Shown here: piece by piece, positions 33,047 to 56,624 of the stretch
Numbering within the stretch: position 1 is the stretch's first letter
How the letters are laid out: every line of letters begins with the position of its first letter
Source of the DNA: a virus
Length of the DNA stretch: 64,000 bases
IMG/VR virus record: IMGVR_UViG_3300025131_000014
Coordinates: 26,317-90,316 of that record
Reading direction: 5' to 3' (one strand)
The notes under the pieces: generated by a model
What the model was told of the DNA's origin: nothing
Database searches by the model: none
What the model saw: only the letters and a program-made list of their open reading frames with translations
Program-made: the position numbers and the translations under genes

Positions 33047-34453
33047 TTAAGTTAATGTTCCTACTGTACCCTGACGAGTATTTCCGCTTATAGGGTCTTT
33101 ATATTTTGCTATTAATGTAAAAGTTGGGTCTGTTCCTGTTGCATAAAAAGTTAAATCGCCAGGTTGAAAATCAATATCTGCAGGTTCAGATTGCGGTACT
33201 TTTTGATAAGTTTGGGCCTCATCTGCTGGTGTTGGTCCGCCTGGACCCGCTTTACCTCTTGCTCTGAAAGAATCATTAATACTTGTGTAATAGCTTTCTC
33301 CTGCTACTCCAGTAGTTCCTGTTGTAGGAGAATCAATAGATGCTCCTATAAGAACAGAATCTGTAACTCCTGTTGTGGCAGCTGTATTATTGTTTGCTAC
33401 ATTAAAACCAATCATTACAGAAGCTTGAAAAGCAACTGGGCCTAAATTTCCTCCACTTCCTACATGATGTCCTACCATAACAGAACGTTCTCCTGCCTGT
33501 CCTCCTGTTGCTTGAGTTAAGACTTCATGTCCTATTAGTACATTTTCACCAGATTGAGTAACAACTCCTCTATTGATATTACTTCCAATAGCAATTGTAT
33601 CATTTACAGCAGTGGCTGCTTGTAAAGCTTTATCTCCCATTATTATAGCACCTGTTCCACTAACATTTAATAAATCAGGTACACAACTTGATCCCATTGC
33701 AATTAAACCTCCTTGAAGTCCAACAGATCCTCCTGAACTTAATATATCTTTTCCTATTAATATGGCAGGATTTCCTTCTAGTAGAGTACCTCCTGTTTGA
33801 AGTATTTCATTGCCTATTGCTATATTATGTTCGCCGCCTAAATCTAATCCTTTCATTACTTCAGTACCTATTGCAATATTAAAATCAGTTGGGTAACTAG
33901 GAGATACAATAATATTTCCTAAGTTTTCCATAGCTGATACACCTATGGCAATATTATTGCTAATTGTTCTTGCTACAGTTCCTGCTCTATGTAACGCATT
34001 TATTCCCATAGCTATATTTTTATCCATAGCACTGGCAGTTGTTCCTTCGCCTACTCCCCATCCTACAAATGTATTTTGCTCTCCTTCAAGTGTTCTTCCT
34101 GTATCTTGTCCGATAAGAGTATTATAAGCGTTTGTGATAGAAGCAGGATTAGCTGCAATATCCATTGCATTACTTCCTAATACAACATTGCCTACTCCTG
34201 TTACTCCTTGTAAACTATCATTTCCTATAATAATATTATTTGATCCTACAGGTTGTGTTGTTACAGTTTTGCTCCATATTTGAGTTAAATCAGGTGTAGA
34301 AAGGTTTGTTGAGAGTATTCCTCCTCCTGTTTCTTCATCACAGCAGTTTTCTTCTATACAACAGATACGTTGTTCTATTTCCTCAAATGCAGTAACTATT
34401 GCACTTTTAGGATAAAAAGGATCTTGTAGCCCTATTTTACTAGCTAAATCCAT
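33047..34453 (-). CDS. Tail fibre/spike with beta-roll (N.AIG-type) repeats (468 aa)
   Basis: Many NIAIG/NVVLG/SVMIG repeats like trimeric beta-roll adhesin heads. Confidence 0.7.
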   Translation of the reverse strand: MDLASKIGLQDPFYPKSAIVTAFEEIEQRICCIEENCCDEETGGGILSTNLSTPDLTQIWSKTVTTQPVGSNNIIIGNDSLQGVTGVGNVVLGSNAMDIAANPASITNAYNTLIGQDTGRTLEGEQNTFVGWGVGEGTTASAMDKNIAMGINALHRAGTVARTISNNIAIGVSAMENLGNIIVSPSYPTDFNIAIGTEVMKGLDLGGEHNIAIGNEILQTGGTLLEGNPAILIGKDILSSGGSVGLQGGLIAMGSSCVPDLLNVSGTGAIIMGDKALQAATAVNDTIAIGSNINRGVVTQSGENVLIGHEVLTQATGGQAGERSVMVGHHVGSGGNLGPVAFQASVMIGFNVANNNTAATTGVTDSVLIGASIDSPTTGTTGVAGESYYTSINDSFRARGKAGPGGPTPADEAQTYQKVPQSEPADIDFQPGDLTFYATGTDPTFTLIAKYKDPISGNTRQGTVGTLT

Positions 34454-35456: not shown

Positions 35457-35701
35457 TCTTTTAAAAGTTCATATAGTTTATCAATTATTAAGCATGTCTC
35501 TTCGTGAGTTATGCATTTATCATTTAAGTTTATTCCACAAAGTATATCTACTAATACAGCTGCTAGAATAAGGTCATCTTTGATCTCATCTTCACAAGCA
35601 TTACCAATAGAAGCTCTATCAGAATAATACTCCATAAGTTTAGCCAATTGGCACCCGAAGTAACCTTGAGCATTTGTTAGATATGTTTGTGTAAGTATCA
35701 T
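35447..35701 (-). CDS. Small Cys-rich helical protein in the tail module (84 aa)
   Basis: ORF tightly overlapping both neighbours. Confidence 0.55.
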   Translation of the reverse strand: MILTQTYLTNAQGYFGCQLAKLMEYYSDRASIGNACEDEIKDDLILAAVLVDILCGINLNDKCITHEETCLIIDKLYELLKDCC

Positions 35702-36843
35702 AATTTTATCATAAATGCTAGTGTAAAATATTCTGGTCTATTTTCGTGTCCAACAGAAGCTGGTGTACTATCAATTGTAACTGTTCCTGAAGCACCAGTT
35801 AAATCTACAGCTGCTGTTCCTGTTAATGTATGTGAGTGACCTGGAAGATGAACTACAGGAGCTCCTTCGGGTGGATCTACTGTAGGAGGATATTGTATTT
35901 GGGAGCCTTCTTCATAAGTATAAATTATTTTATCAGGCTGATCACTTGTACCTCCTGGATTATGAGGATTGGTACCATAATCAAGTGGGCCAGCTAAACC
36001 TCCACTAATAACATTAAATCCTTCATAATAACCTGATCCTGCATTAGTTCCTTGTACTCCATGTTTGTGCATTCCATCTCTAGCAGTTTGAGCAGCACTT
36101 AGATCTACTGTAGCTCCTGCTGCATCTAAACTAAGACTTGCAGTATGTGTATGTGCTCCTACTTCTGCTGTAGATAATGCTACAGTTGTGGCACCTCCTG
36201 TATCTCCAATAGCATTATAGTCTGGATTATTGAGACTATCTGGAGAAGAGTAAACTGCTATGAATTTTGATTCTATTGCAGGTACTACTAAAGGAGCTCC
36301 GTTTCTGTCTGTAGTTGAACCAATACTATTCATACATAAGCACCATCCTTCTACGTCTGTTCCTGGTATTCCTTTTCCTAGTAAAGTAGGATCTGCTACT
36401 ACTTCAGGATCTGTAGATTTATAAAAGTTATTAGCTGATCCTGAATACATTTGAATATATCCTATTCCATGAGCTTTATTTGCATAAGCTAGACTATAGC
36501 TTGAACTACTTGGCATTGCTTGTAGCATTATTACCCAAGCAGCTCCATCATATATATAAACTGTATTAGTAGTTGTATTATAATATGCATCATTTTCTAC
36601 AGGACTTCCAGGATCAGTTGCAGAGTCTCCTCTCCAGTTAATCGATATTCCATCAGCTCCAGCAGGACCAGTCGGTCCTATTGGACCTATAGGACCATCT
36701 GCTCCCGTATCCCCTTTGGGTCCAGTTGGCCCCGTTAGTCCAAGTGGTCCAGGTAGACTAGTAGGTAAGACTATATCGCCACATGAACAAGTGTTACATG
36801 CATCATTTGTGTCTCCTGTTAATACTCCTATTATATCTGCCAT
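35698..36843 (-). CDS. Collagen-containing tail fibre with collar-like domain (381 aa)
   Basis: G-X-Y repeats, GWCLC...GDTGG, HTHT/HSH metal-binding fibre-tip motifs, HENRPEYFTLAFMIKL C-terminus. Confidence 0.8.
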   Translation of the reverse strand: MADIIGVLTGDTNDACNTCSCGDIVLPTSLPGPLGLTGPTGPKGDTGADGPIGPIGPTGPAGADGISINWRGDSATDPGSPVENDAYYNTTTNTVYIYDGAAWVIMLQAMPSSSSYSLAYANKAHGIGYIQMYSGSANNFYKSTDPEVVADPTLLGKGIPGTDVEGWCLCMNSIGSTTDRNGAPLVVPAIESKFIAVYSSPDSLNNPDYNAIGDTGGATTVALSTAEVGAHTHTASLSLDAAGATVDLSAAQTARDGMHKHGVQGTNAGSGYYEGFNVISGGLAGPLDYGTNPHNPGGTSDQPDKIIYTYEEGSQIQYPPTVDPPEGAPVVHLPGHSHTLTGTAAVDLTGASGTVTIDSTPASVGHENRPEYFTLAFMIKL

Positions 36844-36856
36844 TCTTTATTCATTT

Positions 36857-38371
36857 TTATGGTGGTGATGAATCACAAGTCATCAAACACCAGTCGTTAT
36901 TTATACCAATAGTTTTAATTTTTACATAAACACTTCCTGATCCATCTGTCATTATATCACCAGGATTACCAAAGTGATCTGTAACTCTAGGATCAATTGC
37001 CGCTACTGTACTTACTGGTCCATACATAGTTGGATAAGGATTCCAATCACCTAAAACTGTAGTATTAGGACCTGTTTGGTTTATAGTTAGTGACCCATCA
37101 TAAGATATAGCTGCATATCCTACAGTACCAAAAGATGGATGAGTTCCATTTACATTTATCCTCATTGCTTTTTTGTAATCAGTCCAATGAAGAGGAGTTG
37201 GTGCTTCATTTTCATTTGTTACTCCAGTTACTGCCCAATTATTACATATTATTTGTAAACCACACTGCCCAGTTTGTGCTCCTGTTTTGTAAAATATTCC
37301 AAGAGGAGCATAGTCTTTCGCTGCGATGTCTGATTTTGTGAGAATCCATATATTAGAAAGTACAATTCTTGACCAAGCATACATACTTGTTACTTGTATA
37401 GGAGCTCCTAAATTTACACCAGTAGTTCCTTCTGCTTCATAATAATCATGTAATTCTTCTCCTACTATCCCTACAAATTCACAATCCATAAGTAGTAGTC
37501 TGGAACAAATAATAGAATTTATTTCAATTGCTACTTGTGAATCTTCATTTGCTGTACCAAATTCTCTAGTTCCAGTAAAAAGACAGTTAACAAATGTGGC
37601 TCTTTTAGAACCTGCACCTATTATTAATCTATATCGAGTTACTCCATTATACAGCTTAAAGCGATTTCCTCCCCCATATATTTCTATTCCTTCACCAAAG
37701 TTTAGATCTAAATCTGCATCTAAATCTATTGAAGCTCCTAGTTTTACTATACCTGCTTGTGCACCATTAGGATTTATTCCACCTACATTATTAAAGTAAT
37801 CAAAGGCATCTTTTACTTCTTGTAGGGTTATAGCATATATTACTACAGGTTGAATCATAGCAGGAACTCCTGGTTTCCATTGAGATACACCTGCATCATA
37901 TACAAGCATATCATCATCAACTAGACCTGCTACATCTACATCAGCTAAAGATGAAGGAGTTGGTGTGTGGTTTCCTAAGTATAAAGTCTCAGGAACCCAA
38001 TTAACTCCATCCCATACTAATACTTGTCCGTTAATTGCTCCTCCTGAATCTACATTTTCAAGTTCTTCTATGTTACCCGCTATGGGAGTCCATGCAAGTC
38101 CATTCCATTTTAATCTATCTCCTACATCATTACCTCCTGGCACTGGTCCTGGAGGTCCTTCAGGTCCTTCGGGTCCCTCTGGACCCTCGGGTCCTTCTGG
38201 GCCTTCTGGGCCTTCTGGTCCTTCAATACCTTGAGGACCAGTAGGTCCTGTTGGTCCTGTTCCTCCTTCTGGGCCTTCTGGTCCTGTTGGTAATATTAAA
38301 TTCCCACAAGAACATGTATTACAAGCATCATTCTTATCTCCTGTAAGTACTCCTGTTATTTTTGTAGCCAT
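36857..38371 (-). CDS. Collagen-containing fibre protein (504 aa)
   Basis: (GPE)n run, three repeats of the type L.WnG..W.P (two preceded by L.DVD/LENVD), beta-helix-like C-terminal half. Confidence 0.75.
38150..38290 (-). repeat. Collagen-like 9-bp tandem repeat (GPE/GPT)
   Basis: Repeated ggnccttcn units on the + strand encoding Gly-Pro-Glu on the minus strand. Confidence 0.9.
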
Positions 38372-42385: not shown

Positions 42386-43831
42386 TTAGTCTGTTCCTAA
42401 AATAAGTTCTCCACAACGAGTTACATCATCAATTTGGACTCCGCACTGATCATGAACTATCATTGTATAACTATCTTTGGAATTACTCATTAATCCTCCT
42501 TTGTTAGCACCATAAGGTGTTTGAAGACCTGAAACATAACCCAATTTATATCCAGATTTTTTGTGGACATATTTGATGTTGCTGTCTCCTGCTCCTCTAC
42601 CGCCGAAGTCTAAGAAGGTAAACCTCATAGATTCAACTGGAACTTGTAAATTAGGATCCATTTGATGATTAATTTCCCTATCGTCATAAATTGGATTGTG
42701 ACGAAGAGTAAGTGTGATTCCATTAGGTCCCACATACTTAACAAACTGACCACCGAATTGAAGATTATTTCCTGAAACTCCTGTTCCAGCACCTTTAATG
42801 AAGTTAGTGTCAACTGTCAAGAAAGGAGAAGATGCATTTACCATGGCTTGGTGGAATGCTAACATTCCATATTCACCAGTGTAAGCTACAATGTTCCTGT
42901 TTGACATTTCAACTCTTCCAAAGAAGATGTCAAGTAAGAACTCACGAATCAACTTTTCAGTTAATGTATTATATACATGTCTGTGAGAATCTCTTAGAAG
43001 ATCTTGGATACCAGGACCAGTTCTTGCAGCTCTACCGTTTGCTCCACGTACTGTATTTGCTCTGGTGTTATACCATAAACTTCTTTCAATCTCTTTATAC
43101 CATTGGATCCAGTATTCTGCTTCAGCATATTTAACCCATTTGAAATCTTTATAGGTTTTACCATCAGCATCCATAAGTGCTACTACTAATGCTTGGTTAG
43201 CTGCGTCTCCTGTAACTGAATACTCTTTTCTAAGAGTAGAAAGTTGAGAACGTAGTTTCATAGGCATTGCGTAAGTAGTGGAACCTGATTGGTCACCGCC
43301 TTCTTCGTATACTGAGAATAATTTACTGAATGGTTTACCAGGTGCTAGTCCTGCTGCTGGAAAAGATAGAGTAGTATCATCTGTTAACAAACGTACTACA
43401 TATATATATCCGTCTCCGTCAGCTACTGGAGATTGTTGTACACGTAATTTGAAGTCTTTTCCGACATCACCTACGATAACATCACCAGGTTTAAACCAAT
43501 CTTCGTCCAATTTTAGATTAAAGTCAATTAATCCTAGTCCAGGATGTGTGATACCACCAGTGGCGTCTCCTAAACTAATCAAAGGACGAGATGATGCTCC
43601 CATCAATTCCCATTCCCAATCAAATGATTCTATTTCTGAAGTTCTACCTGCTCCTTTGGTCATCGCAATAATTGGATTATCAGACAACCTAGAAGCTGTA
43701 AAAACTCTAGTTAACACTTGATCAAATTTATGAGGCTCGGCTAGAAACGCAGCACCTAAGTGATTTACTTCGGTGAAGTTCGCATGCCAAGGCCTTGTTA
43801 ATACTGTTAATGAATTTCTTGCTCGGCTCAT
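42386..43831 (-). CDS. Major capsid protein (481 aa)
   Basis: Size and position after an acidic scaffold-like gene; motifs RTGPGIQD, YTGEYGM..FH, GGQFVKYVGPNGITLTLRHNPIYDD, ESMRFTFLDFG typical of crAss-like MCPs. Confidence 0.9.
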   Translation of the reverse strand: MSRARNSLTVLTRPWHANFTEVNHLGAAFLAEPHKFDQVLTRVFTASRLSDNPIIAMTKGAGRTSEIESFDWEWELMGASSRPLISLGDATGGITHPGLGLIDFNLKLDEDWFKPGDVIVGDVGKDFKLRVQQSPVADGDGYIYVVRLLTDDTTLSFPAAGLAPGKPFSKLFSVYEEGGDQSGSTTYAMPMKLRSQLSTLRKEYSVTGDAANQALVVALMDADGKTYKDFKWVKYAEAEYWIQWYKEIERSLWYNTRANTVRGANGRAARTGPGIQDLLRDSHRHVYNTLTEKLIREFLLDIFFGRVEMSNRNIVAYTGEYGMLAFHQAMVNASSPFLTVDTNFIKGAGTGVSGNNLQFGGQFVKYVGPNGITLTLRHNPIYDDREINHQMDPNLQVPVESMRFTFLDFGGRGAGDSNIKYVHKKSGYKLGYVSGLQTPYGANKGGLMSNSKDSYTMIVHDQCGVQIDDVTRCGELILGTD

Positions 43832-45165: not shown

Positions 45166-48100
45166 TTATTTATTTAGAAGATTAAAATAATAGTTAAGTC
45201 TATTAATATCTCTGCTGCTTAATCCTTTTTGTTCTTGTTTCCTTATAGGTCCTCCTTTAGCATGGTCTATATTAGGATCACTCATATCAAAGGTTCCTCT
45301 ATTGCCTATGGTTGATTTAAGTCTATTATCATAAGGAGATACAACTGCATATATATCTTCATATTTAGTGTCCTTAGTTACTGGAATTCTATTTTTATAT
45401 GTTACTTTATTCATACCTGGAACCTCATTTGCATATAAACTATATTTATTATTCCCCCACATAGTAAATATATCTCTGGGAGTAGTCTCATCCATCATAT
45501 CGTCAAATGAATGAGCAATTCTTTTATCAAAAAAAGGTTCAGGTATAGCATATACTCCTTCTCCATACCTGTTCGCTCCTGTTCCAGATAAATTTTTAGA
45601 TTCATCAAAAAAATCAAACTTCTTTTTAGACTGATGAATTACAGGAATAACCTTACCATCTTCTCTTAGTACTTTTGAAAAAGCCAAATTAAAGTTTTTA
45701 CTTTTCTGTTGTACAAATTGTTCAGGAGTTCCTTTGAATTTAGAACCATCAGCATTCTTCATCCATGTACCTCTTTTCTTAGTAATAGCTTCTATATAAT
45801 TATATTCCTTTAATAATTTACCTTCATTGAGTGTTGGTGTTTCTGGATGCCATTTTCCCCAGTCTATGTCTGAAACAAAATCATCCGTTTTATTTAATAA
45901 AGAATTGTATGCTTTTTTTACTCCCTTAGCTCCTGCTTTCAAGGCTGCTCCCCCTACAAAAGGTATTGCTAATCCTGCTGCAGACCATGCTGCATCTTCA
46001 TAATTTCTTTTCTTAAGGTAAAGAGCCGCATTAGTTGCATCGGCAGCCTCTCCAACAACTGGAAGAAAAGATGCCTGATATAAAGCATCATGAATTGTAG
46101 GTATATTTGTATAGTCATCTTTTTGTGTTTCTCCTGCATATTGATCTCTAAATCCTGGGATATATGTATTATCTTGTCTAGCGTAATTAATTTGTGGAGG
46201 ATCTACATCTCCGCTTTGTTGATATCTCCTAACTTCTCCTCCTCTATTTTTTATATGTTTAAATCTTGTTTGTCTTAACCCTTCAAATTCTCGAGCTGCT
46301 TCTCTCGCACTACCTTTTATCCCAACTCCAGGCAGAAGTTTAGAAAGCTCTTTACCTGATAATTTTGATATATCTTCTTTATCTAAAATTTTCAATGCTT
46401 TATTAAGCATTTCAGTGCTTTTGTCATCTAGTCCTACAGGCTCAACTCTTCCTTTTTTTAATTGATGTAAATACTGTTTTATTCCGCTTAAAGTATGTGC
46501 TTTATCAGAGTATATACCTTTTCCTTGTCTTTTCATTGATTCGAGTACAGCTTTTTGAAAAGTACCTGCAACCCCTGTACCTTCTAAAGGAAGAACAGAT
46601 CCTTTTTCGCCTATATGTTTTATAAATAACTTTTGAGCTCTTATTTCTTCTACACTTTTTCCTAATTGCTTGGCAAGTAACTTATACATTTCGTCTTTAG
46701 ATTGTCCTTTTACACCTGCTTTATTATATGGAGCAATAGTTTCCCAAAGTGGATGTTGTTTATGCCTACCTTGTAGTTGGGTAAAAGGAAAGTGTCCTTT
46801 TCTTTTATACCCTACAAAATTTCCCTCAGAGGTCACATGTGGAGAATATGAATGGTCTCCTATATCATGCCATATTTTTGTTTTAGGATTTTGTAGTTGC
46901 ATATATAATTTATTAGCAGGAGCACCTAATCTTCGACTGTTTGTTAATTCATCTGCATTTTGAAAAGGATTTCTTCCATTTACTCTTTCTCCTTTATTAA
47001 TTAAATTCCTTGCTTGTCCTGCTGTTAATAGGTTATCAGCTTCATCAAAAAGTTGCATCCCTTCTCCCATTGCTCTGTTTACATCTTTTATTGATCTTAT
47101 AGGAGCAGGAGATGCAGATACTCTTAGGTTAAATGGTGTCTTGTTTATATTTCGTATTGCATCTGTTTTAAGTAAATCATTTATTTCTTTGGCATTTTGA
47201 CTAATTCCTGGAACATTAGTTAGAGTATTAAAGTCAGGGAGAGACTCACTACCCAAAGCAGCTATAGATTCATCAATGTCTCTACCACCTCGGGTTATAT
47301 AGTTTTGTCCTGGATTATTTCCAAATATATCTTCTGATAGCTGAGCTAAAAGTTCTCTCTCTGCATCACTAGGTGCTCCAAACATATCGTCAGCATCGGC
47401 TGCACTCGATCCCAACCCAGGTGTATAAGAGCTCTCCCTCGCTTGCCATTGTTCCCAAATTTCGTCTTCTAAAGCGTTGCCTTGCTCTTTTGCTATATTG
47501 AAATCATCAATCTCAGCATCTGTTTTTCCTATAGGAATTCCATCAGAATCCATATCTAAATAAGGGTCATAGGGTTTTGTCTGAGGATTTAGAGCATTAG
47601 CTTTGAATTCTGCATCTAGCTCTGCTTGTGTACCTTTTATACGTTCTCTCTGTATAGCATTATAATCTGTTTGATGGGTTGGATCAGCGTCTCTTCCATG
47701 AGGAAGATTACGATGACGAGAGCTATCTTTTATAAAACCAGCTGCCATTTCTTCTCTTAAAGTACGAAGACCAAGTTTTCTCTCCTTTACCACTCTCTTA
47801 ACATCTCTATATAGAGGATTAGTTTCAGGTACTCCCATAGCTATTATGCGTTCCATTCGTTCTTCTGCATTTCTTAGAGACTGTTCAGCAGTACTTATTT
47901 CAGTCAGAAAATCTCTTCTTGGTACATTGCTTGGGCCAGTTACATCTCCTGTAATATTCTTAACATGTGCTTGATTTTGAAGTTGTCCAGCTAGTTTTCG
48001 TCCTTGTGTACTATTCATTAAGCTTTCTGCTCCTTGTTTTGCATACTTTATACTTTTATCTGCTAGCTTACCTGCATCTATTCCAGGTATAGGATTAAGC

Positions 48101-51100
48101 ATTTCTGCTGCAAATCGTGCAGGGCCTGTATTTGCTCCTAGTCCTCCTAATGTTCCTCCTAGCAAAGGAGCTCCTAGTGCAGTTACATAAGGCCAATAAC
48201 TATCTTGATCTCGTGCTTGTTTAGGAGCACCTGCAAGTGCATCTGCCATAGGACCTATAAATGCAGAACCTGGATTAATCCAATTATCTATAAAACTATT
48301 TGGATCATTGGGAAATGCTCTGAATTTACCCGTTATATCTGTTTTAGCCATGTTATCTCTTGACCAATTATCAGGGTTAAATACCCCAAATCCTTGATTC
48401 ATAGGGTTTTCTTCTGCAGCTTGAGTAGTAGTTTTTCTTCTTGCTAATTCTGCAACGTTTTCTCTGCCCCATTGAGCAAAACGTTTATCTGAAGAACTCA
48501 TTCTATCTGCTTCTACTGTAAAAGGAGGAAGAGAATATTTTTGTTCATAAGTATCGTCTCCTACATATCTTGTTTGACCATCTGGAGCAGTCTTGCCAGC
48601 TTCTTGAACCCATTGCTGGTTTATAGGTGGCTCAATATCTCCACTACTTTGATATCTTTTAATCTTTCCTCCTCTTTCAAATGATTTTTCTTCACTGATT
48701 ATTGAAGTTTCTTCATCTCCTATCTGAAGTTTTTTAATAGCACTAACAACTTTATTAGCAAATCTTCCTCTTGTTGCTCCTCCTTGAGCATCTCCAGACG
48801 CTAAAGTATTGTCTCCACTTTGCCAATAGTAATCCAGTTTTTGTGCTTTTGTTAGATTAGGATTATTTCCTATGGTTGTCTTTTTTATTACAGTTCTACC
48901 ATCTTCTTCTCTTACAATATATACTGGTTTTGTTTTTCCTGGATTTAACTTAAAGTATGTTTCATTTAATTTTTCTTGTAAGTTTTCTCTTTTTTCTTTA
49001 GCACTTGTAACTAAATTACCAAATTTTAAATGTGTAGGTATTCTGCTCCAATGACTGGAATAATTGTATTCCCATCTATCTAGATACGCATCAGTACTTA
49101 TTCTTTCTCCCTTTATTCCAGGTGCTCCTTCTACAAGGAAACCTTTATTTCCCCAATTGCCTTGACCACCTCTTATGTATCCTTTTAATTCTTGTTCTAG
49201 ATCAGGTTCCCAAAAAGTTCTTGTTCCTCCACTTAATCCTTTTTGAAATGCTTTTTCTGCTCTTTTTGAAGCTTCAGAAAGGTATAGCATTGTGAGAGCA
49301 GCAGATGCTCCAGGGTCTTGAATATCAAGGTCTTTTCCGTTATGTGTTAGTCTCCATTCTTTATTTAGTTTTTGATAAGCGCTATGAAGTACTTCATCCT
49401 TAATTTCTCCTCCTTTAGCTATTTTACCACTTTGCATCCTATCTCCTTCTTCATGTACTCCCATGATATTACTCATCTTCAATTGAGTAAATCCTTGACT
49501 TTCTCCATATTGATCAAAAATAGGTTGTGATAATATTCCTCCTCCTCCTTCAGTTTCGTTTATACCTAAAGCAACTGCAATATTAGCGAGTTCATTATAC
49601 TCATTATCTTTCATTTTTAAGGTATGAGTAAGTAATGCTTTTTCTTCGCCAAGGTGACCAACAAAAGCTTCTGTACTGTCTATATCTATATCTACAATTC
49701 TTCCTAAGTCTCCATTTGCAAGTGAATCACTTAGTTGTTCAACATAGCCAGTATCATAACTTGTTTTTAAATCTTGAGCAAGTCCTTTTTTACTTAGGTT
49801 AGCAAAAGTAGCATTTTGGGCTCCTTTTGGTACTGTAATTCCTACAAGATCATAATTATCTGTATTATATACTACTTCATTAAAATCTCTATAGGGCATA
49901 GTTTGTTGGAAAATTCTATCTTCTTCATTTCCATCTTCGTCAATAATATTAGGTCTAGTAATTTGATCATGCATAAAATGATCATATAGTATAGGAATTC
50001 CATCTTCAGTAAATCCTGCTACTACCATACTATGACCTGCTCTTCCCATTCCTGGAATCATTTTTGCATTAAAATTATCATCACTATTTATATTCTCATT
50101 ATGTCCAAATCCTAGTACTGTTCCAACAGGCATATTGGCAAATAGTTTTTTTACTTTTTTTGGATATCTCCATGAACCATCAGTATTTCTTTGAAGTGTA
50201 TTATCTACATTTGCATTATATATGTTTTTTCCTCCTTGAGTTACAAGTGCTCCATGTATTTGCCAGCTATCTGCTGAAACTCCTTTATAAGGTACATTTA
50301 TTTTAAGCTTTCCAGTTTCTCTGTCTAGCGAAAAATTATCTGGCCCAATACCTGTATATTCATAATCTTTAAATAATGCTACTGCATCTTTAGTTGCCTC
50401 ATTTGTAAGTTCGTCCCATTCTTTTTCAAATAGTTTCTCACGTTCCCTTTCTGCTTTCCATATTTTATTTTCTTGCGCTTTTCCCTTTTTATAAAATTCT
50501 TTTTCCTCGTTTGTATAAAGATTTTCTCCATCTAAACCTTTTTCGTTAAGAAATGTATAAGGATCCGTTCCATATCCTGGAGAATTTTTGTTGACCTTTG
50601 TGTACATCTCCTCCCTAGCTTGCTCCCAAACTTCAAATGCAGTTGCATTTTCTATAGTATCAGGAGGAGGTGGATTTTCTTGCATCCATTTGCGCATTAT
50701 CTCCCTTTTAGTATCATAATACCTCTGTTGTATATCATTAATAGTAGGAATTCCTTGTTCTTTTGGTTCAGTTATATAATCGTTTTTCCAAATAGCATAT
50801 TTTTTATCGTACTCTACTTCAGCAAGTCGATTTTGTTCACTTAGCGCTAATACTTTTTCTTTAAGTATTGAATCATAGTTATAATTTTTAAATCTTGCTT
50901 CTAGTTGATCTTGTTTAGCAGAGTATAGTCCTTCTTTTAAACCATAAGAATTTTTTAATCCTATGTTAGGATTGTTTCTTACTAGTCTATCATATGCTTT
51001 AAAAGAACTTTCTAAACATGCTCCGTCTGGACACATTTCTGTACGTAACTCTTCATCACCTGCATAATCCATATAGAATTTTTCAAGATCAGTCACAACA

Positions 51101-52176
51101 GGATCATTAAAATTTAACTGGTCTTTTAGTCTTTCATTGTCTTTAAAAAAAGATTCTCTTTCGGCTTTATTTAAGTATTTCCATTTTCCTGATAAAGCAT
51201 TAAAGTTTAGATAGTGCTTTATATCCTCTGTTTTGTCTTTATCTGTTTCACTCATTCTCTCTCTCCAGTCCCTCCTACGACCTGGTTTGCCTCTAAAATT
51301 ATATTTGTTTACTAATTCTTCAAGTTCTAAAGCTGAAAAATCACCAAATCTCATTTCCTGTTTTCTTTTCTCTACTTCTTCATCAGTTAGTGGAAAATTT
51401 GGTAAATCTGTAGGTATTGGACCACCAGTAGTAGTTATATTTTGTTTTAGGGCTATAATATTGGGATTAGTAGCTAGATTTAGATTATCTGATTGACTTC
51501 TGGTAATTGGAGCTTGTCCATATCCTGATCCATATAGTGAGCTATCAGGAGGATCAACATCTCCTACAACATCAGATTGTTGATATTTAGGTACTCCTCC
51601 TCCTGCAATGAATCCAAAGTATCTTTTTTGTTTTTGAGTTAGCCTTTTTCCATATACTTTACCGTGCCTTAAGATCTTTTTTGCTTTTTGAGATGAAACG
51701 GGTCCTCCTCTTTTATACTCATCAGGGTATACTTCTATCATATCAAGTAAATTGCCTTGATATACAGGATACTCTCCACTACCTTGCTGGTCAAAATATT
51801 CCTGAGTTCTTTCAGCATGTAGATCTGTATCTTTAGAATGAACAAATCGTTTACCATCCCATTTCCCTCCATATATATTACTTCCTCCTTTTTGAAATGA
51901 ATATTGAGACTCTTCAGAAAAAGTTGGATGTCCAGGCACTTTAAATTTATCTGTGAAGTGATCTCCTTGCTCTAGGATCTCTGTTGGATTTTCTTGCCAG
52001 TATCCACGATAATCGTAGTAATGTAATGGGTCATCAGGATTAGGAGCAATCTGTAAAGTATTTGCAGTATTACTATACCATACTTTAAATTTTGCTTCAT
52101 CTATTGGTGATAGCTCTGTTTTAAAAGAAAGTTCTTCAGGATTTTCCTGCCTTATCTGTGGTTTTGTATGAATCAC
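45166..52176 (-). CDS. Large multidomain (polyvalent-type) virion protein (2336 aa)
   Basis: Motifs for a papain-like peptidase (GACLES...GHSMVVAG...YDH), a lysozyme-like domain (INETEGG...SQGFTQLK...DPGASAALTMLYL), a GNAT-like segment, a pre-toxin-TG-like segment and an ART-PolyVal-like C-terminus. Confidence 0.8.
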   Translation of the reverse strand: MIHTKPQIRQENPEELSFKTELSPIDEAKFKVWYSNTANTLQIAPNPDDPLHYYDYRGYWQENPTEILEQGDHFTDKFKVPGHPTFSEESQYSFQKGGSNIYGGKWDGKRFVHSKDTDLHAERTQEYFDQQGSGEYPVYQGNLLDMIEVYPDEYKRGGPVSSQKAKKILRHGKVYGKRLTQKQKRYFGFIAGGGVPKYQQSDVVGDVDPPDSSLYGSGYGQAPITRSQSDNLNLATNPNIIALKQNITTTGGPIPTDLPNFPLTDEEVEKRKQEMRFGDFSALELEELVNKYNFRGKPGRRRDWRERMSETDKDKTEDIKHYLNFNALSGKWKYLNKAERESFFKDNERLKDQLNFNDPVVTDLEKFYMDYAGDEELRTEMCPDGACLESSFKAYDRLVRNNPNIGLKNSYGLKEGLYSAKQDQLEARFKNYNYDSILKEKVLALSEQNRLAEVEYDKKYAIWKNDYITEPKEQGIPTINDIQQRYYDTKREIMRKWMQENPPPPDTIENATAFEVWEQAREEMYTKVNKNSPGYGTDPYTFLNEKGLDGENLYTNEEKEFYKKGKAQENKIWKAEREREKLFEKEWDELTNEATKDAVALFKDYEYTGIGPDNFSLDRETGKLKINVPYKGVSADSWQIHGALVTQGGKNIYNANVDNTLQRNTDGSWRYPKKVKKLFANMPVGTVLGFGHNENINSDDNFNAKMIPGMGRAGHSMVVAGFTEDGIPILYDHFMHDQITRPNIIDEDGNEEDRIFQQTMPYRDFNEVVYNTDNYDLVGITVPKGAQNATFANLSKKGLAQDLKTSYDTGYVEQLSDSLANGDLGRIVDIDIDSTEAFVGHLGEEKALLTHTLKMKDNEYNELANIAVALGINETEGGGGILSQPIFDQYGESQGFTQLKMSNIMGVHEEGDRMQSGKIAKGGEIKDEVLHSAYQKLNKEWRLTHNGKDLDIQDPGASAALTMLYLSEASKRAEKAFQKGLSGGTRTFWEPDLEQELKGYIRGGQGNWGNKGFLVEGAPGIKGERISTDAYLDRWEYNYSSHWSRIPTHLKFGNLVTSAKEKRENLQEKLNETYFKLNPGKTKPVYIVREEDGRTVIKKTTIGNNPNLTKAQKLDYYWQSGDNTLASGDAQGGATRGRFANKVVSAIKKLQIGDEETSIISEEKSFERGGKIKRYQSSGDIEPPINQQWVQEAGKTAPDGQTRYVGDDTYEQKYSLPPFTVEADRMSSSDKRFAQWGRENVAELARRKTTTQAAEENPMNQGFGVFNPDNWSRDNMAKTDITGKFRAFPNDPNSFIDNWINPGSAFIGPMADALAGAPKQARDQDSYWPYVTALGAPLLGGTLGGLGANTGPARFAAEMLNPIPGIDAGKLADKSIKYAKQGAESLMNSTQGRKLAGQLQNQAHVKNITGDVTGPSNVPRRDFLTEISTAEQSLRNAEERMERIIAMGVPETNPLYRDVKRVVKERKLGLRTLREEMAAGFIKDSSRHRNLPHGRDADPTHQTDYNAIQRERIKGTQAELDAEFKANALNPQTKPYDPYLDMDSDGIPIGKTDAEIDDFNIAKEQGNALEDEIWEQWQARESSYTPGLGSSAADADDMFGAPSDAERELLAQLSEDIFGNNPGQNYITRGGRDIDESIAALGSESLPDFNTLTNVPGISQNAKEINDLLKTDAIRNINKTPFNLRVSASPAPIRSIKDVNRAMGEGMQLFDEADNLLTAGQARNLINKGERVNGRNPFQNADELTNSRRLGAPANKLYMQLQNPKTKIWHDIGDHSYSPHVTSEGNFVGYKRKGHFPFTQLQGRHKQHPLWETIAPYNKAGVKGQSKDEMYKLLAKQLGKSVEEIRAQKLFIKHIGEKGSVLPLEGTGVAGTFQKAVLESMKRQGKGIYSDKAHTLSGIKQYLHQLKKGRVEPVGLDDKSTEMLNKALKILDKEDISKLSGKELSKLLPGVGIKGSAREAAREFEGLRQTRFKHIKNRGGEVRRYQQSGDVDPPQINYARQDNTYIPGFRDQYAGETQKDDYTNIPTIHDALYQASFLPVVGEAADATNAALYLKKRNYEDAAWSAAGLAIPFVGGAALKAGAKGVKKAYNSLLNKTDDFVSDIDWGKWHPETPTLNEGKLLKEYNYIEAITKKRGTWMKNADGSKFKGTPEQFVQQKSKNFNLAFSKVLREDGKVIPVIHQSKKKFDFFDESKNLSGTGANRYGEGVYAIPEPFFDKRIAHSFDDMMDETTPRDIFTMWGNNKYSLYANEVPGMNKVTYKNRIPVTKDTKYEDIYAVVSPYDNRLKSTIGNRGTFDMSDPNIDHAKGGPIRKQEQKGLSSRDINRLNYYFNLLNK

Positions 52177-54566
52177 TTTTTATCTTTTTTCTTACTTGCT
52201 TTTACTTTTTCTCTTTCGATTTTTTCTTTACTCGCTATCTCTTTTTCTTTGACTGCAAGTTTTCTTTCTTCTATAGCCGCTTTTTGTGTATTCACTTGTT
52301 TTTCAGTTTCAAGTCTCTGGACTTCAAGATCATCTGGGACTTGATTATTGTTAGCATCGTTGTCTTCTTTAGCAGCTACTTGCATTTCAGCAATTGTAAG
52401 TTTAGTCTGATTTGTAGTATCCACTTTATATTTCTCAAATTCTTGCTCGTCCTGATCTTGAGATAATTGTTTATCTTGCATTTTTTGCTGAGCCTCAAGC
52501 TGTTCGCGTTGTTGTTGAAGTGCTTGTTCTTTTTTCTTTTCTTCAGCTGCTTCCAGAAGTATTTTAATCTCTTCTGGAGATTCAGTTGTGAGCATTTTAA
52601 CAATATCTGAAAGATCTGCCTGTTGATTTTGAAGAGCAGCATGTGTCAATTGTTTTAGAATATCCATAGTTTCCTGATCCCTTGCAGAATCTGATAGGAA
52701 TATACCATAACTTGCTTCTGAGAATTTCTCATCTAAAACGATTGTACTGATTGACATATCATCTAGAACATACTGTATCTTTCTAGGTTCATTTGAATAG
52801 GCAAGTTTAGCTGCTTCAAGTAAACCTGTAAGCACTTCTCTTTTTAAACTGTTATGTGAATGAAACCATTCTTCGGTTATGTGACTTGACTGCACAACTG
52901 CTTGTCTTGCATTCGTAGCTAATTCTGTTGCGCCTATTTGTCCTTCTCTTTGTTTGGTCACACCTGCGACATCGCCCGCACGATTTTCTAGGTATTCAAG
53001 CATTTGAACTTTTTGTTGAATAGTTTGTCCCATTGACAAATCTAAAGTCTGCCATTGATTGAAAGAATTCTGCTGTCCTCGTTTTCCTTCTTCTTGAGGA
53101 TTTACCCAAGCAATTCCCATAGCATCAAAGTAATATAACCACTTATTCATATCTAGTCCCATTGAGCTTGGAACTTGGTTAATATCTGCTAAAAATTTCT
53201 TACCTTTGTCTGAAGCGATATCGAGCTCAAGTCGATACATCATAATGTTATAAAGATATTGATAAGGTTTAATCCTATCAATCATAGATACTGATTCTGC
53301 ATTCAGGTTGTTGTATGAGAGCCCATAGAAACCTAATTTACAAGTTGTCATATCGTCAATGTCACGATGTTGATTTGGTTTGGGCCTCATATTAACATAT
53401 ATCTCATTTCCGATTTTTGATCCTTCCCATATTTCTGGAACCCATTGCCACTCTATACTTATATCTCCTTTTTGTTCATCTTTTCTATACTTATCATTTA
53501 CTATAGTTTCCTGTATTTCTCCTTGAAGATCCATATATTTTAGAAAGCCTATCTTTCTTAAAGACCTCCATTCAACATGTACTACTCTTATATACTTATG
53601 TGAGTCTCCTGTTGTATTAAAATCAAAGTCAATATAGTTATCAAAAATATCATTATTTATAGCTCCCTCCCAAGATAGTGGATCAGCATTAGGATCAGAT
53701 ACATTGTCATCATACATCTCTCCAATCTGCTTAGATGTAAGATATTCACCGAATGTATCGATTACAGAACCAGGGGTCATCCTCATTTCATACTTTGCCC
53801 ATTGCCCATCTTGGATATATTCAATATCAGGATCTTTATCGTATTGAAAATAAAGAGGATTTACTACATTCATCTTTGGTTCTCCATTTACGATACCAAC
53901 CCAATATATTTCTTCTCCAGCTATAAGCGCATGTCTCCATCCTTTATTAAACTTATCTCTTACTGTTTCTTTCTTCATTAAGAAATTAAGTAGGTTTTGT
54001 CCTGTTATTTCTTGATTTGACCTAAACTCTCTTTTCATATATGTTTCAATATCAGAAGGAGTCATCTCTTGTGTTATTTGTTCGACAGCTTGCTGTTGTT
54101 CTTCTGCAGGCATACCTGCTATTTGCATAGACTCTTTTTTAATTTCTTTTTGTATGGCATACTGTATTCTTTCCATCATATACCTTTTCAGCATTTTTTC
54201 TTTTTCTTTCTCTCTGACTGAAACAGCTTCTGGATTAACAGTTGTAACACGAAAGTTAAAGGGTCTCTTTATTTCTTCGCCGAATAATACTCTTAGTTTG
54301 GGACTTGTTATGTCGTAATTTCTCATTTGTGCAGGAAGATCTCCCATATCCTGTCCATAGGGTTTCATTACATATTCAAAATCATCTGGATTAAGTTGAC
54401 CATTAAAAAGATCATAATTAAGCTTTTTACGTATTCGGTCATCACTTCCATTAAAGCTTGTAAATCTATATGCATCTAAAGCATCTATTACATTTTTAGC
54501 CCATTGTTTATCTTTACGATTCTTGGCGGCATCTGTTAGTTTTTGTTGCGGAAAATAGTGTCCCAT
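52173..54566 (-). CDS. Portal protein (797 aa)
   Basis: Directly after TerL; FPQQKL, NYDI..PK...L.GEE.KRP, KPYQYLYNI, GVTKQREGQI motifs of crAss-like portals. Confidence 0.9.
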   Translation of the reverse strand: MGHYFPQQKLTDAAKNRKDKQWAKNVIDALDAYRFTSFNGSDDRIRKKLNYDLFNGQLNPDDFEYVMKPYGQDMGDLPAQMRNYDITSPKLRVLFGEEIKRPFNFRVTTVNPEAVSVREKEKEKMLKRYMMERIQYAIQKEIKKESMQIAGMPAEEQQQAVEQITQEMTPSDIETYMKREFRSNQEITGQNLLNFLMKKETVRDKFNKGWRHALIAGEEIYWVGIVNGEPKMNVVNPLYFQYDKDPDIEYIQDGQWAKYEMRMTPGSVIDTFGEYLTSKQIGEMYDDNVSDPNADPLSWEGAINNDIFDNYIDFDFNTTGDSHKYIRVVHVEWRSLRKIGFLKYMDLQGEIQETIVNDKYRKDEQKGDISIEWQWVPEIWEGSKIGNEIYVNMRPKPNQHRDIDDMTTCKLGFYGLSYNNLNAESVSMIDRIKPYQYLYNIMMYRLELDIASDKGKKFLADINQVPSSMGLDMNKWLYYFDAMGIAWVNPQEEGKRGQQNSFNQWQTLDLSMGQTIQQKVQMLEYLENRAGDVAGVTKQREGQIGATELATNARQAVVQSSHITEEWFHSHNSLKREVLTGLLEAAKLAYSNEPRKIQYVLDDMSISTIVLDEKFSEASYGIFLSDSARDQETMDILKQLTHAALQNQQADLSDIVKMLTTESPEEIKILLEAAEEKKKEQALQQQREQLEAQQKMQDKQLSQDQDEQEFEKYKVDTTNQTKLTIAEMQVAAKEDNDANNNQVPDDLEVQRLETEKQVNTQKAAIEERKLAVKEKEIASKEKIEREKVKASKKKDKK

Positions 54567-54572
54567 AGTTAT

Positions 54573-56624
54573 TTATTTTGCATACATTTTTTTCATATTA
54601 TCTAATAAGAAGTCTACTACTATATTTGTTGGTGCTTCTTGATCTATTTCTTTCTCAAAATCTTCTTCGACCATAAACATTAATTGCATAAATCCCATGA
54701 CCCTGTCAAAGTTTCCCTGTCTTGAATAGTTTATTAGCTCTTCTACAAGAGCAATTGATGGAATTAGATCCATATTATATATTATTTCATCATCTGAATT
54801 AACTCCTCTTTCTGTCCATAGCCAACGCAAGATATATTTTTCTCCTGCATCTTTCATTCTGTCATTCATATGACAGCCTTTCATTCTTGCTACAGTACTG
54901 TTCTTAATTACTTTAGAGATCACATTATCAGGTTGATCTGCTAGAAAATGTAGTTTGCCTCTTCTTTTGAAATAAGAAAGAACTTCACCTCGATCATTTT
55001 CAAACATAATCTTTGCATCTCCGTAGTATTGCGAAAGCATTTCAAGGTTCTTATGATATATCTCTATATTCTCGGGCCTTCCTACATATTCAGCTACAAT
55101 CTCATCATAACCAAAATCAAATTTATTAAAAGATTTATAAACAAAGGCAGCATTTAAAGACTTTCCTCCAGCCTTATCGAAAGCTACAGGGTCAAGTCCA
55201 ATCTTATAAAGACCATGAGGGATAGTAGAAGGAGGATGTTGGTAAACAATTACACATCCTTGTTGAGGGTCATTTGGTTTGTGCGGGTATTTTGTAATGG
55301 GGTGGAGTTTGTTCTCCATATCCATTTCGAATTTAACAGGATGATCTGTATTATCGCTTCTTACAAATGTTCCTGGGTCTCCTAATTTTTTATATTTATT
55401 ATCTGACTTAAGTCTATTAAGTACTCGATAAAGCTCAACTACTGGAAAGACTGCACCTTCAGGTCTAAGGAATGCTTCTTTCGGTGTTTTTGGATGCTGG
55501 GTTATGAAAAGATTATAAGCTACAGGCTCTACTGCTTTTTTTTCTTCTCTTTCCAGATCTACATCATTAGTTGCTTCTGCACGTAAATGATTCCCTGCTT
55601 TGTCTACAAAAGGAGGTCTATACCATTGTTCATCTACAAACCATCCACACTCTCCAACAGTATTCTCATCATATATATTTTCGTAAGCTCTTAGTCCGTA
55701 AAACGATGGGTTATAAAACATTTCTTCGAAGTCAAAGTTAGTGCCGTTCTTTGAGTTACCGCCTGTACCATAAATGATCGGTATACCTACCATTATATTA
55801 CCATCTTTGAAAAGCGGATAGGATCTTTGATATGCTTGAAGTAATCCAGGCCAGTCTCCTGCTTCTTCAAAAAGCATGCGTTCTGCAGTTCGTCCTACTG
55901 ATTTTTGCGGGCTGTCTTTAAAAGAAAGTGCTAAGATCTCAGATTTATAACCTTTTTGTACTTGGATCCCATCTCTATTCTTTTCTATATATCCGCTCTT
56001 TATGGTTTCCTGCCTGTCGGTCAAGAAGCCTTTAGCCCAATCTGTATTATCATTAATGAAGTTGATCATTGATTTGGCCATCTCCATTGTATTAGACCAG
56101 AATGTCTTTTCAAATGCAGCTAGTATTGATATAGAATACGGAAACCAATTGTAACGCCAAACCATGCCAAAGGCATTTTTATAGGAATAACCTTTACGCC
56201 GTGCTTTAACGACTATCATTCCTTCACCAGCTTTCTCTGCTTTATCCAGTTCATGATACCAGTAGTAATCCATATCCAAGAATCTTGGAAATGTTTCTAT
56301 TTTTCGTTGTCGTTTTCCTTGTCCGACTGTAGCCAAAATCCTACCATAATTAAGATAAGCGTAATGCTCACCCGTAACAGTAACTCCTCCCACTGTATAT
56401 CCATTCTTACATCTCTTTTCTTCTCGATCCCAAAACTCTATAAACTCTGTTGTACCTGGAGGAGCTAGAGTATAACATTTATGCTTAAGATAATGTTGAG
56501 CAGAAAGAGAAAAGTAGCTAGTATTGACAAACTTAAGATAATCAGTACCTGTATGACGTATTGGATTATCCTGTTCTTCAATATTAGTATGTTTAGTTGC
56601 TACTATTATCTTTTCATTTTTCAC
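54573..56624 (-). CDS. terL: Terminase large subunit (683 aa)
   Basis: Walker A-like VKARRKGYSY, Walker B MLFEEAG, YGTGG coupling motif, nuclease IGLDP and NFDRV. Confidence 0.95.
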   Translation of the reverse strand: MKNEKIIVATKHTNIEEQDNPIRHTGTDYLKFVNTSYFSLSAQHYLKHKCYTLAPPGTTEFIEFWDREEKRCKNGYTVGGVTVTGEHYAYLNYGRILATVGQGKRQRKIETFPRFLDMDYYWYHELDKAEKAGEGMIVVKARRKGYSYKNAFGMVWRYNWFPYSISILAAFEKTFWSNTMEMAKSMINFINDNTDWAKGFLTDRQETIKSGYIEKNRDGIQVQKGYKSEILALSFKDSPQKSVGRTAERMLFEEAGDWPGLLQAYQRSYPLFKDGNIMVGIPIIYGTGGNSKNGTNFDFEEMFYNPSFYGLRAYENIYDENTVGECGWFVDEQWYRPPFVDKAGNHLRAEATNDVDLEREEKKAVEPVAYNLFITQHPKTPKEAFLRPEGAVFPVVELYRVLNRLKSDNKYKKLGDPGTFVRSDNTDHPVKFEMDMENKLHPITKYPHKPNDPQQGCVIVYQHPPSTIPHGLYKIGLDPVAFDKAGGKSLNAAFVYKSFNKFDFGYDEIVAEYVGRPENIEIYHKNLEMLSQYYGDAKIMFENDRGEVLSYFKRRGKLHFLADQPDNVISKVIKNSTVARMKGCHMNDRMKDAGEKYILRWLWTERGVNSDDEIIYNMDLIPSIALVEELINYSRQGNFDRVMGFMQLMFMVEEDFEKEIDQEAPTNIVVDFLLDNMKKMYAK

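Follow-up and report, generated by a model that had tools for sequence, protein, structure and literature searches.

The protein cargo of crass-like phages is believed to amount to megadaltons; to our knowledge, the cargo seen directly is limited to gp45, gp46 and the polymerase of one gut phage. Iyer et al. (2017, PMC5512222) described a class of polyvalent proteins whose genes lie beside those for portal and terminase. In phage crAss001, cryo-electron microscopy showed the CARG1 domain, a segment of the cargo protein gp45, bound to the portal wing within the capsid, and mass spectrometry detected gp45 in virions (Bayfield et al. 2023, PMC10172136). MuF proteins such as SPP1 gp7 (Jamet et al. 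2017, PMC5576092) are encoded immediately downstream of the portal gene, and in MuF toxins a conserved, head-associated N-terminus precedes C-terminal effector modules that vary and include a pre-toxin-like segment. Here we describe a gene for a 262-kDa protein of 2336 amino acids, the giant protein (P0001), which lies between the portal gene and a gp31-like gene in a 64,000-nucleotide stretch of DNA from a marine crass-like phage, referred to as the window (positions 26,317 to 90,316 of IMG/VR record IMGVR_UViG_3300025131_000014). We put the probability that the product is a polyvalent cargo protein, packaged in virions and ejected into the host, at about 0.55.

Like the polyvalent proteins, the giant protein is composed of unrelated modules (an N-terminal domain, the M1 module, a PT-TG-like and an ART-like module), each with its own partner architectures, and its ART-PolyVal-type and pre-toxin-like modules have relatives shuffled among hundreds of multi-domain proteins. 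The setting is also alike, a phage gene amid packaging and virion genes, in the order large terminase (TerL), portal, giant gene, gp31-like gene and major capsid protein (MCP). It differs in that none of its modules reaches a Pfam threshold and the ART-like core is without its Glu, while about 1500 residues belong to no known family, the N-terminal domain is new and the peptide joints are private to the lineage. With gp45, the giant protein shares a Gly-rich hydrophobic segment (residues 126–161 in gp45, 1330–1349 here), but it is three times longer, its gene follows the portal gene rather than the muzzle gene and there is no direct sequence similarity between the two. The likeness to the MuF toxins is in the gene position next to the portal and in the order of a conserved, presumably head-associated part and variable effector modules. 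However, the giant protein has no PF04233 match, its N-terminal domain of about 90 residues is unrelated in sequence, and the next gene is gp31-like, with no immunity gene.

The first-pass annotation had proposed one long open reading frame (ORF) in this position, and the gene is indeed a single frame. Its product is identical to protein P0002, encoded on a 90-kb contig, and the G+C content of the DNA is about 35%. The proposed overlap with the portal stop codon is also present, although in a different form: translation begins at a GTG that shares bases with the portal stop codon TGA, giving GTGA, while the ATGA-type overlap first described is that of the relatives L003 and L004, which start with ATG. 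The GTG start is credible because residues 5–135 align with the N-termini of the relatives' proteins. Coupling of the start to the portal stop is kept in three lineages. Contigs from marine runs not marked as the source of the record (X5, X6 and X7) span the portal overlap, linkers 2 and 3 (described below) and the 3' joint with at least 99% identity, from which we conclude that the mosaic is not an assembly chimera. Marine contigs from four runs, which cover the gene patchily, reveal neither a joint lacking the cassette nor any insertion or deletion in the gene, and there is no RNA dataset among the runs listed as containing the ORF. The complete record measures 90,316 bp, with an estimated completeness of 97%. 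It is placed in the Crassvirales because of Pfam matches for the muzzle and ring-1 proteins, and its nearest cultured relatives are Flavobacterium phages of the FpV4 type (MCP identity 45%).

The region between the portal and MCP genes was compared in relatives found via the portal protein (83–84% portal identity). In L003, an 886-amino-acid gene (P0007) overlaps the portal stop, and in L004 and L022 the same is true for a 1136-amino-acid gene (P0009). The product of the latter aligns with residues 5–455 and 630–1155 of the giant protein, the alignment ending just before linker 2. A metagenome scan for further variants revealed nothing beyond these 886- and 1136-amino-acid types, and extending the comparison to more remote portal loci in IMG/VR added just one fragment to the same four relatives. 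In FpV4 and crAss002, nothing lies between the portal and gp31-like genes and the MCP gene is also adjacent; in cr60_1 and cr272_1 the portal gene is separated from the gp31-like or MCP genes by about three small ones, and in crAss001 the distance from portal to gp31 is 13 kb, filled with head-fibre, tail-fibre and lysis genes. The premise that portal, scaffold-like and MCP genes of crass-like phages are close neighbours thus holds only in some lineages, such as FpV4 and crAss002. From these differing contents it follows that the portal–gp31 junction is a variable slot, with a gene length of 0, 886, 1136 or 2336 amino acids. The gp31-like gene itself has positional equivalents in FpV4 gp12, crAss001 gp31 and crAss002 gp11; its product is a scaffold protein by inference only, and gp31 goes unmentioned in the crAss001 virion atlas (PMC10172136). 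In Azobacteroides phage ProJPt-Bp1, a gene for a 2325-residue protein (PJPA_033, L032:16865-23842) also abuts the portal gene; neither similarity to the giant protein nor a Pfam match was detected for it.

The N-terminal domain is predicted with confidence by AlphaFold2 (AF2), with predicted local distance difference test (pLDDT) values of 85–94. In an alignment of 11 sequences, Y54, D55, Y56, H73, K79, H83 and P84 are nearly invariant. No relative was found in Pfam, PHROGs or the PDB; a translated search (tblastn) with residues 1–135 against 50,697 phage records gave no meaningful match, and a protein atlas gave no usable one. From its sequence, the domain of about 90 residues appears to be a new family. 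Stand-alone ORFs of 120–160 amino acids encoding it adjoin portal genes in unrelated phage contigs: the order is TerL, small ORF, N-terminal domain and portal in L019, and in L021 a portal-like gene is followed by the N-terminal domain overlapping its stop, a 308-amino-acid gene and the MCP gene. The domain is also contained in gp42 of cr272_1, located in the portal-to-MCP slot (pairwise E-value 5e-4, iterated profile 2.5e-25). A Foldseek search of BFVD returned the same gp42 with a probability of 0.93; the biologically interesting matches are crAss proteins, attributed to the N-terminal domain (the aligned range is not given). In ProJPt-Bp1, the domain heads PJPA_041, a 3481-amino-acid "putative structural protein" (L037:13709-24151), and in a few other large proteins it is located C-terminally. 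It is absent from crAss001, FpV4, cr60_1 and crAss002. The basic 25-residue motif that comes after the domain forms the extreme N-terminus of the polyvalent proteins P0096 and P0073 (their residues 5–44, identified by jackhmmer and regular expression). Two observations on cr272_1 may be added. Genes gp43 and gp42 (L035:9448-11028) contain in-frame stops under table 11, which suggests that this phage uses stop-codon recoding, and gp43, right after the portal gene, contains a stretch, VAGFIPAGG, that recalls the PT-TG-like helix pair.

At the other end of the giant protein, the cassette of residues 1981–2309 is made up of the PT-TG-like helix pair (residues 2035–2095), followed by a helical lead-in (SDIDWGKW to GTPEQFVQQ) and an ART-PolyVal-like core (together residues 2096–2306). 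The fragment P0013 lacks the cassette. It ends in RFKHIKNRGG/PVNSIYPNVNEYFNYLNK, while the giant protein reads RFKHIKNRGG/EVRRYQ, 329 residues in the cassette, then HAKGG/PIRKQ and finally NYYFNLLNK; the PT-TG-like and ART-like unit has therefore been inserted in frame between GG and P, leaving the tail intact. In the small proteins P0066 and P0113, this PT-TG-like unit is likewise preceded by a GG joint, and the sequence upstream of it differs. The module formed by residues 2035–2306 is widespread, with 757 matching representatives at E<=1e-3, and 19 of 40 homologues of the module match PF18760 (ART-PolyVal). One of the relatives, P0004, is found by phmmer with an E-value of 2e-27, and its PF18760 stretch aligns with residues 2175–2303. 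The giant protein itself does not match PF18760 at E<=1 (hmmscan) or, in a six-frame search of the genome, at E<=10. Judged by these alignments, the cassette belongs to the ART-PolyVal superfamily. In an alignment of 45 sequences, H2181 is invariant and S2183, Y2209, Y2245 and Y2248 are kept in the giant protein. The catalytic Glu is present in 32 sequences; the 13 without it are a sizeable minority, in which the giant protein has an alanine (Ala2277) and P0003, 66% identical, a threonine. The AF2 model of the cassette has pLDDT values of 70–95, with Foldseek giving weak matches to PARP15 and tankyrase. Pre-toxin TG (PF14449) was not matched at E<=1, and residues 2041–2095 weakly resemble the M1 module (iE 3.7). 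A contig from run X8 matches about 34 bases in the SDIDWGKW lead-in (45852-45885, minus strand) and is unlike the gene on both flanks, as expected if it came from another phage sharing only this conserved stretch.

The M1 module is present in about 40 of 157 related proteins (jackhmmer), mostly just upstream of an ART module. The C-terminal modules provide a connection to known cargo, as crAss_CARG1 (PF25725) is found in three proteins that share them with the giant protein: P0032 (with M1), P0108 (with ART-PolyVal) and P0063 (with ART-PolyVal and a glucosaminidase). The region that follows M1 is an orphan. A confident antiparallel helical hairpin is predicted at about residues 1414–1494 (pLDDT 91–94), fold searches yielded only generic coiled-coil matches, and the protein atlas gave no usable match for residues 1376–1978. 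Its sole relative is the fragment P0013, itself absent from IMG/VR, with 79% identity to residues 1781–1984.

As the first-pass annotation had stated, the modules are split by a repeated GG...YQxS motif, and the flanking modules are independently distributed in other proteins. Three full copies of the linker are present, 16–18 residues long with the consensus (R/G)GG..(K/R)YQxS(G)D(V/I)(D/E)PP, together with half motifs, (K/R)GG, at residues 156, 921 and 2307; the other long ORFs of the window contain no full copy. The DNA of the three copies is about 70% alike and differs at synonymous sites, from which it can be concluded that the peptide, and not the DNA, is conserved. On account of the same differences, a recent intragenic DNA duplication was dropped as the origin of the linkers. 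No copy of the DNA pattern or of the back-translated peptide pattern was found elsewhere in 2.9 million IMG/VR contigs. A looser motif, [KQ]xGGWLDKYQxxGE, was found in 13 of the 157 related multi-domain proteins, compared to 0.45 expected from shuffles, often directly after the ART module. All three linkers are modelled by AF2 at low confidence and are likely disordered. At the DNA level, all six (K/R/A)GG sites share the purine run GGAGGA; the triplet before it is AGA or AAA, and GCA at residue 191 (51592-51711, 49387-49434, 48649-48693, 46219-46263 and 45229-45279, minus strand). The run is Shine-Dalgarno-like, but this role was dropped: the ARAGGAGGA joint probably reflects the commonest Lys, Arg and Gly codons of an AT-rich genome.

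A conserved peptide in drifting DNA, placed in predicted disordered regions between modules and ending in D/E-P-P, would fit a role as cleavage sites, and the related motif that follows ART modules in other proteins fits the same idea. The giant gene would then encode a polyprotein precursor, giving at least four mature proteins (the N-domain piece, the core, M1 with the orphan region, and the ART-like part), not all of them necessarily staying in the particle. We consider this unlikely, if worth keeping in mind. No protease gene was recognised among the scanned late genes of the window, the crAss001 virion atlas reports no processing of cargo (the word "protease" does not occur in its text) and no sign of cleavage was seen here. 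Processing is, moreover, compatible with packaging as cargo and would not replace it.

The first-pass annotation described the gene product as a multi-enzyme effector with wall-degrading and host-modifying activities, and this part is largely unsupported. The core of the protein (residues 216–1155) aligns only with P0009 and P0008 (34–40% identity) and, loosely, with P0007. By eye, it contains a Cys motif (C382/C387), a His motif (AGHSMVVAG...ILYDHF, with H715) and a lytic-transglycosylase-like motif (INETEGG/GFTQL, with E874), of which the first two are shared by P0001, P0009 and P0007. Profile tests of the peptidase and transglycosylase assignments all failed. For the core, there is no Pfam or PHROG match in the giant protein or its relatives, nor a PDB profile match. 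A jackhmmer profile of the SLT family (PF01464), started from E. coli Slt70, finds four related proteins but misses the giant protein, and direct comparison with the core by hhalign gave a probability of 0.2%, leaving only the resemblance of the ET...GFTQL motif. The sole fold hint for a papain-like NlpC/P60 or CHAP domain is PDB entry 9l5u_A (E 1.8), a weak match in a part where the AF2 model is poor; pLDDT values in the core are mostly below 50. Residues 830–1005, compared by tblastn with the 50,697 phage records, gave no meaningful match, and a word-indexed search with residues 600–1165 gave none. Since the formal tests are negative or weak, wall-degrading activity is treated as unverified, and because a separate endolysin is encoded, the giant protein is not needed for lysis.

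Searches with the entire protein were similar in outcome. Pfam and PHROGs, searched with the whole protein and with eight segments, gave nothing below an E-value of 0.03. There was no meaningful tblastn match to the phage records and no match of profiles (alignments A3 and A2) to PDB sequences. The two halves were modelled by AF2 with mean pLDDT values of 49.5 and 53, and neither matches a PDB structure at E<=1e-3 in Foldseek. In three VIA fold searches, generic helical hairpins took up the results, which were uninformative on the other domains.

The proposal of an injected cargo protein fared better, with indirect support from the portal coupling, the occurrence of the N-terminal domain beside portal genes and the presence of the C-terminal modules in CARG1-bearing proteins, which together would be consistent with packaging. 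Several points weigh against it. The phage is known from DNA alone; no CARG1 domain (crAss_CARG1) is detectable in the giant protein or in the whole genome; and the gene is not in the gp45/gp46 position beside the muzzle and polymerase genes. Pfam and PHROG families match no part of the protein, its assignment as a peptidase or transglycosylase comes down to short motifs that failed profile tests, and an alanine occupies the Glu position of the ART-like domain. As the corresponding slot of crAss001 holds external fibre genes, position alone is no proof of an internal location.

The lack of a recognisable active enzyme, the missing catalytic Glu and some 600 residues of orphan sequence could instead point to a protein that is not part of the virion, either a late cytoplasmic or assembly factor (a head-assembly helper or a host-takeover protein) or a decayed selfish mosaic kept by hitch-hiking. 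The gene is also absent in FpV4 and crAss002 and is therefore dispensable for the virion design. We regard this as improbable, as the 7-kb frame is kept open in AT-rich DNA and is near-identical in several marine samples, the linkers and tail are conserved at the peptide level, the portal coupling is conserved and homologues of the modules sit in known cargo proteins. About as improbable is an external appendage, such as a tail-associated wall-degrading or fibre-linked protein. In its favour, the genes in the crAss001 slot between portal and gp31 (gp21–gp26) include tail-fibre proteins and a CHAP-annotated structural protein, gp22 docks on the tail hub (crAss001 virion atlas), and short motifs in the giant protein hint at a Cys/His peptidase and a lysozyme-like region. 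Against it, the Pfam and PHROG searches revealed neither fibre-like repeats nor a beta-helix or a receptor-binding family, and the window has other genes that are candidates for the fibres (two with collagen repeats at 35698-38371 and a tailspike-like one at 33047-34453). In other phages, the C-terminal modules accompany CARG1, which is internal and binds the portal, and ART-type domains act inside cells.

Table 1. Features of the giant protein and neighbouring genes, with positions in the window.
Feature	Residues	Coordinates	Strand	Remarks
Giant ORF (P0001)	2336 aa	45166..52176	-	single uninterrupted frame, no internal stop
N-terminal domain	17-130	51787..52128	-	core HYYDYRGYW ... H..D.FK.PGHPTFS
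Basic 25-residue motif	164-188	51613..51687	-	KAKKILRHGKVYGKRLTQKQKRYFG
Linker copy 1	191-210	51547..51606	-	AGGGVPKYQQSDVVGDVDPP
Lineage-specific core	216-1155	48712..51531	-	helical 216-640, beta-rich 640-830, helical 830-1005
Linker copy 2	1167-1184	48625..48678	-	ERGGKIKRYQSSGDIEPP; bridged by X5 and X6 contigs
M1 module	1255-1375	48052..48414	-	Gly-rich, mildly hydrophobic segment YVTALGAPLLGGTLGGLGAN at 1330-1349
Orphan region	1376-1977	46246..48051	-	mostly helical
Linker copy 3	1977-1994	46195..46248	-	NRGGEVRRYQQSGDVDPP; upstream joint of terminal cassette; bridged by X5 contig 45849-47277
In-frame cassette	1981-2309	45250..46236	-	between NRGG and AKGG
C-terminal tail	2310-2336	45169..45249	-	PIRKQEQ...NYYFNLLNK; kept in cassette-less P0013, ending ...NRGGPVNSIYPNVNEYFNYLNK
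Endolysin	240 aa	56625-57347	-	phrog_435; just upstream of large terminase
Large terminase (TerL)		54573-56624	-	
Portal gene		52173-54566	-	phrog_6547, E 6e-174; translationally coupled, upstream of giant ORF
gp31-like gene	397 aa	43867-45060	-	phrog_16294; precedes MCP gene
MCP gene		42386-43831	-	phrog_11589
Muzzle gene	1829 aa	24001-29490		Pfam match; ring protein gene also beyond MCP

In the neighbourhood, the endolysin gene is likewise upstream of the large terminase gene in FpV4 and cr272_1. After the muzzle gene there are three genes (636, 637 and 774 amino acids; 17836-23983, minus strand) with no Pfam or PHROG match, in the place where crAss001 has gp45 and gp46. Next to them is a frame (1-17826, minus strand) that is open for 5942 codons or more and continues past the start of the window. 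The two adjoining genes at 35698-38371 (minus strand; 381 and 504 amino acids) contain collagen-like triplet repeats near their N-termini and likely encode fibre proteins.

If the giant protein is indeed cargo, it would be synthesised along with the portal, travel within the capsid and be ejected into the host at infection. The N-terminal domain, perhaps with the basic motif, would anchor the protein at the head or portal, and the parts fused to it would thereby be packaged; the loading handle would be this new domain rather than CARG1 or MuF. The Gly-rich M1 modules might have the role that the pre-toxin or membrane-active segment plays in crAss cargo protein 1, and the core may attack the cell wall during entry. 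The ART-like domain without Glu could bind or cleave NAD, or could be a non-catalytic remnant, rather than a classical transferase. Peptide-level selection would maintain the linker as a flexible joint and possibly as a processing or docking site. A more far-reaching version, which is possible although we would not count on it, is that the N-terminal domain is a hitherto unrecognised head- or portal-docking adaptor of Bacteroidota phages, that cassettes joined at (K/R)GG sites are packaged and ejected, the linkers being cut or threaded during ejection, and that this is a second, independently evolved cargo-loading system beside the CARG1 of gp45.

The label of a multi-enzyme protein does not survive testing here, as no verified catalytic fold appears to be present outside the ART relative, which is itself without the Glu. 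The locus nonetheless suggests a second cargo route, with a portal-coupled gene and an N-terminal domain that recurs beside portal genes and heads giant proteins in two crAss lineages. If this domain is a packaging handle, it would explain how variable payloads are loaded, and it would provide a tag for finding cargo genes in uncultured phages.

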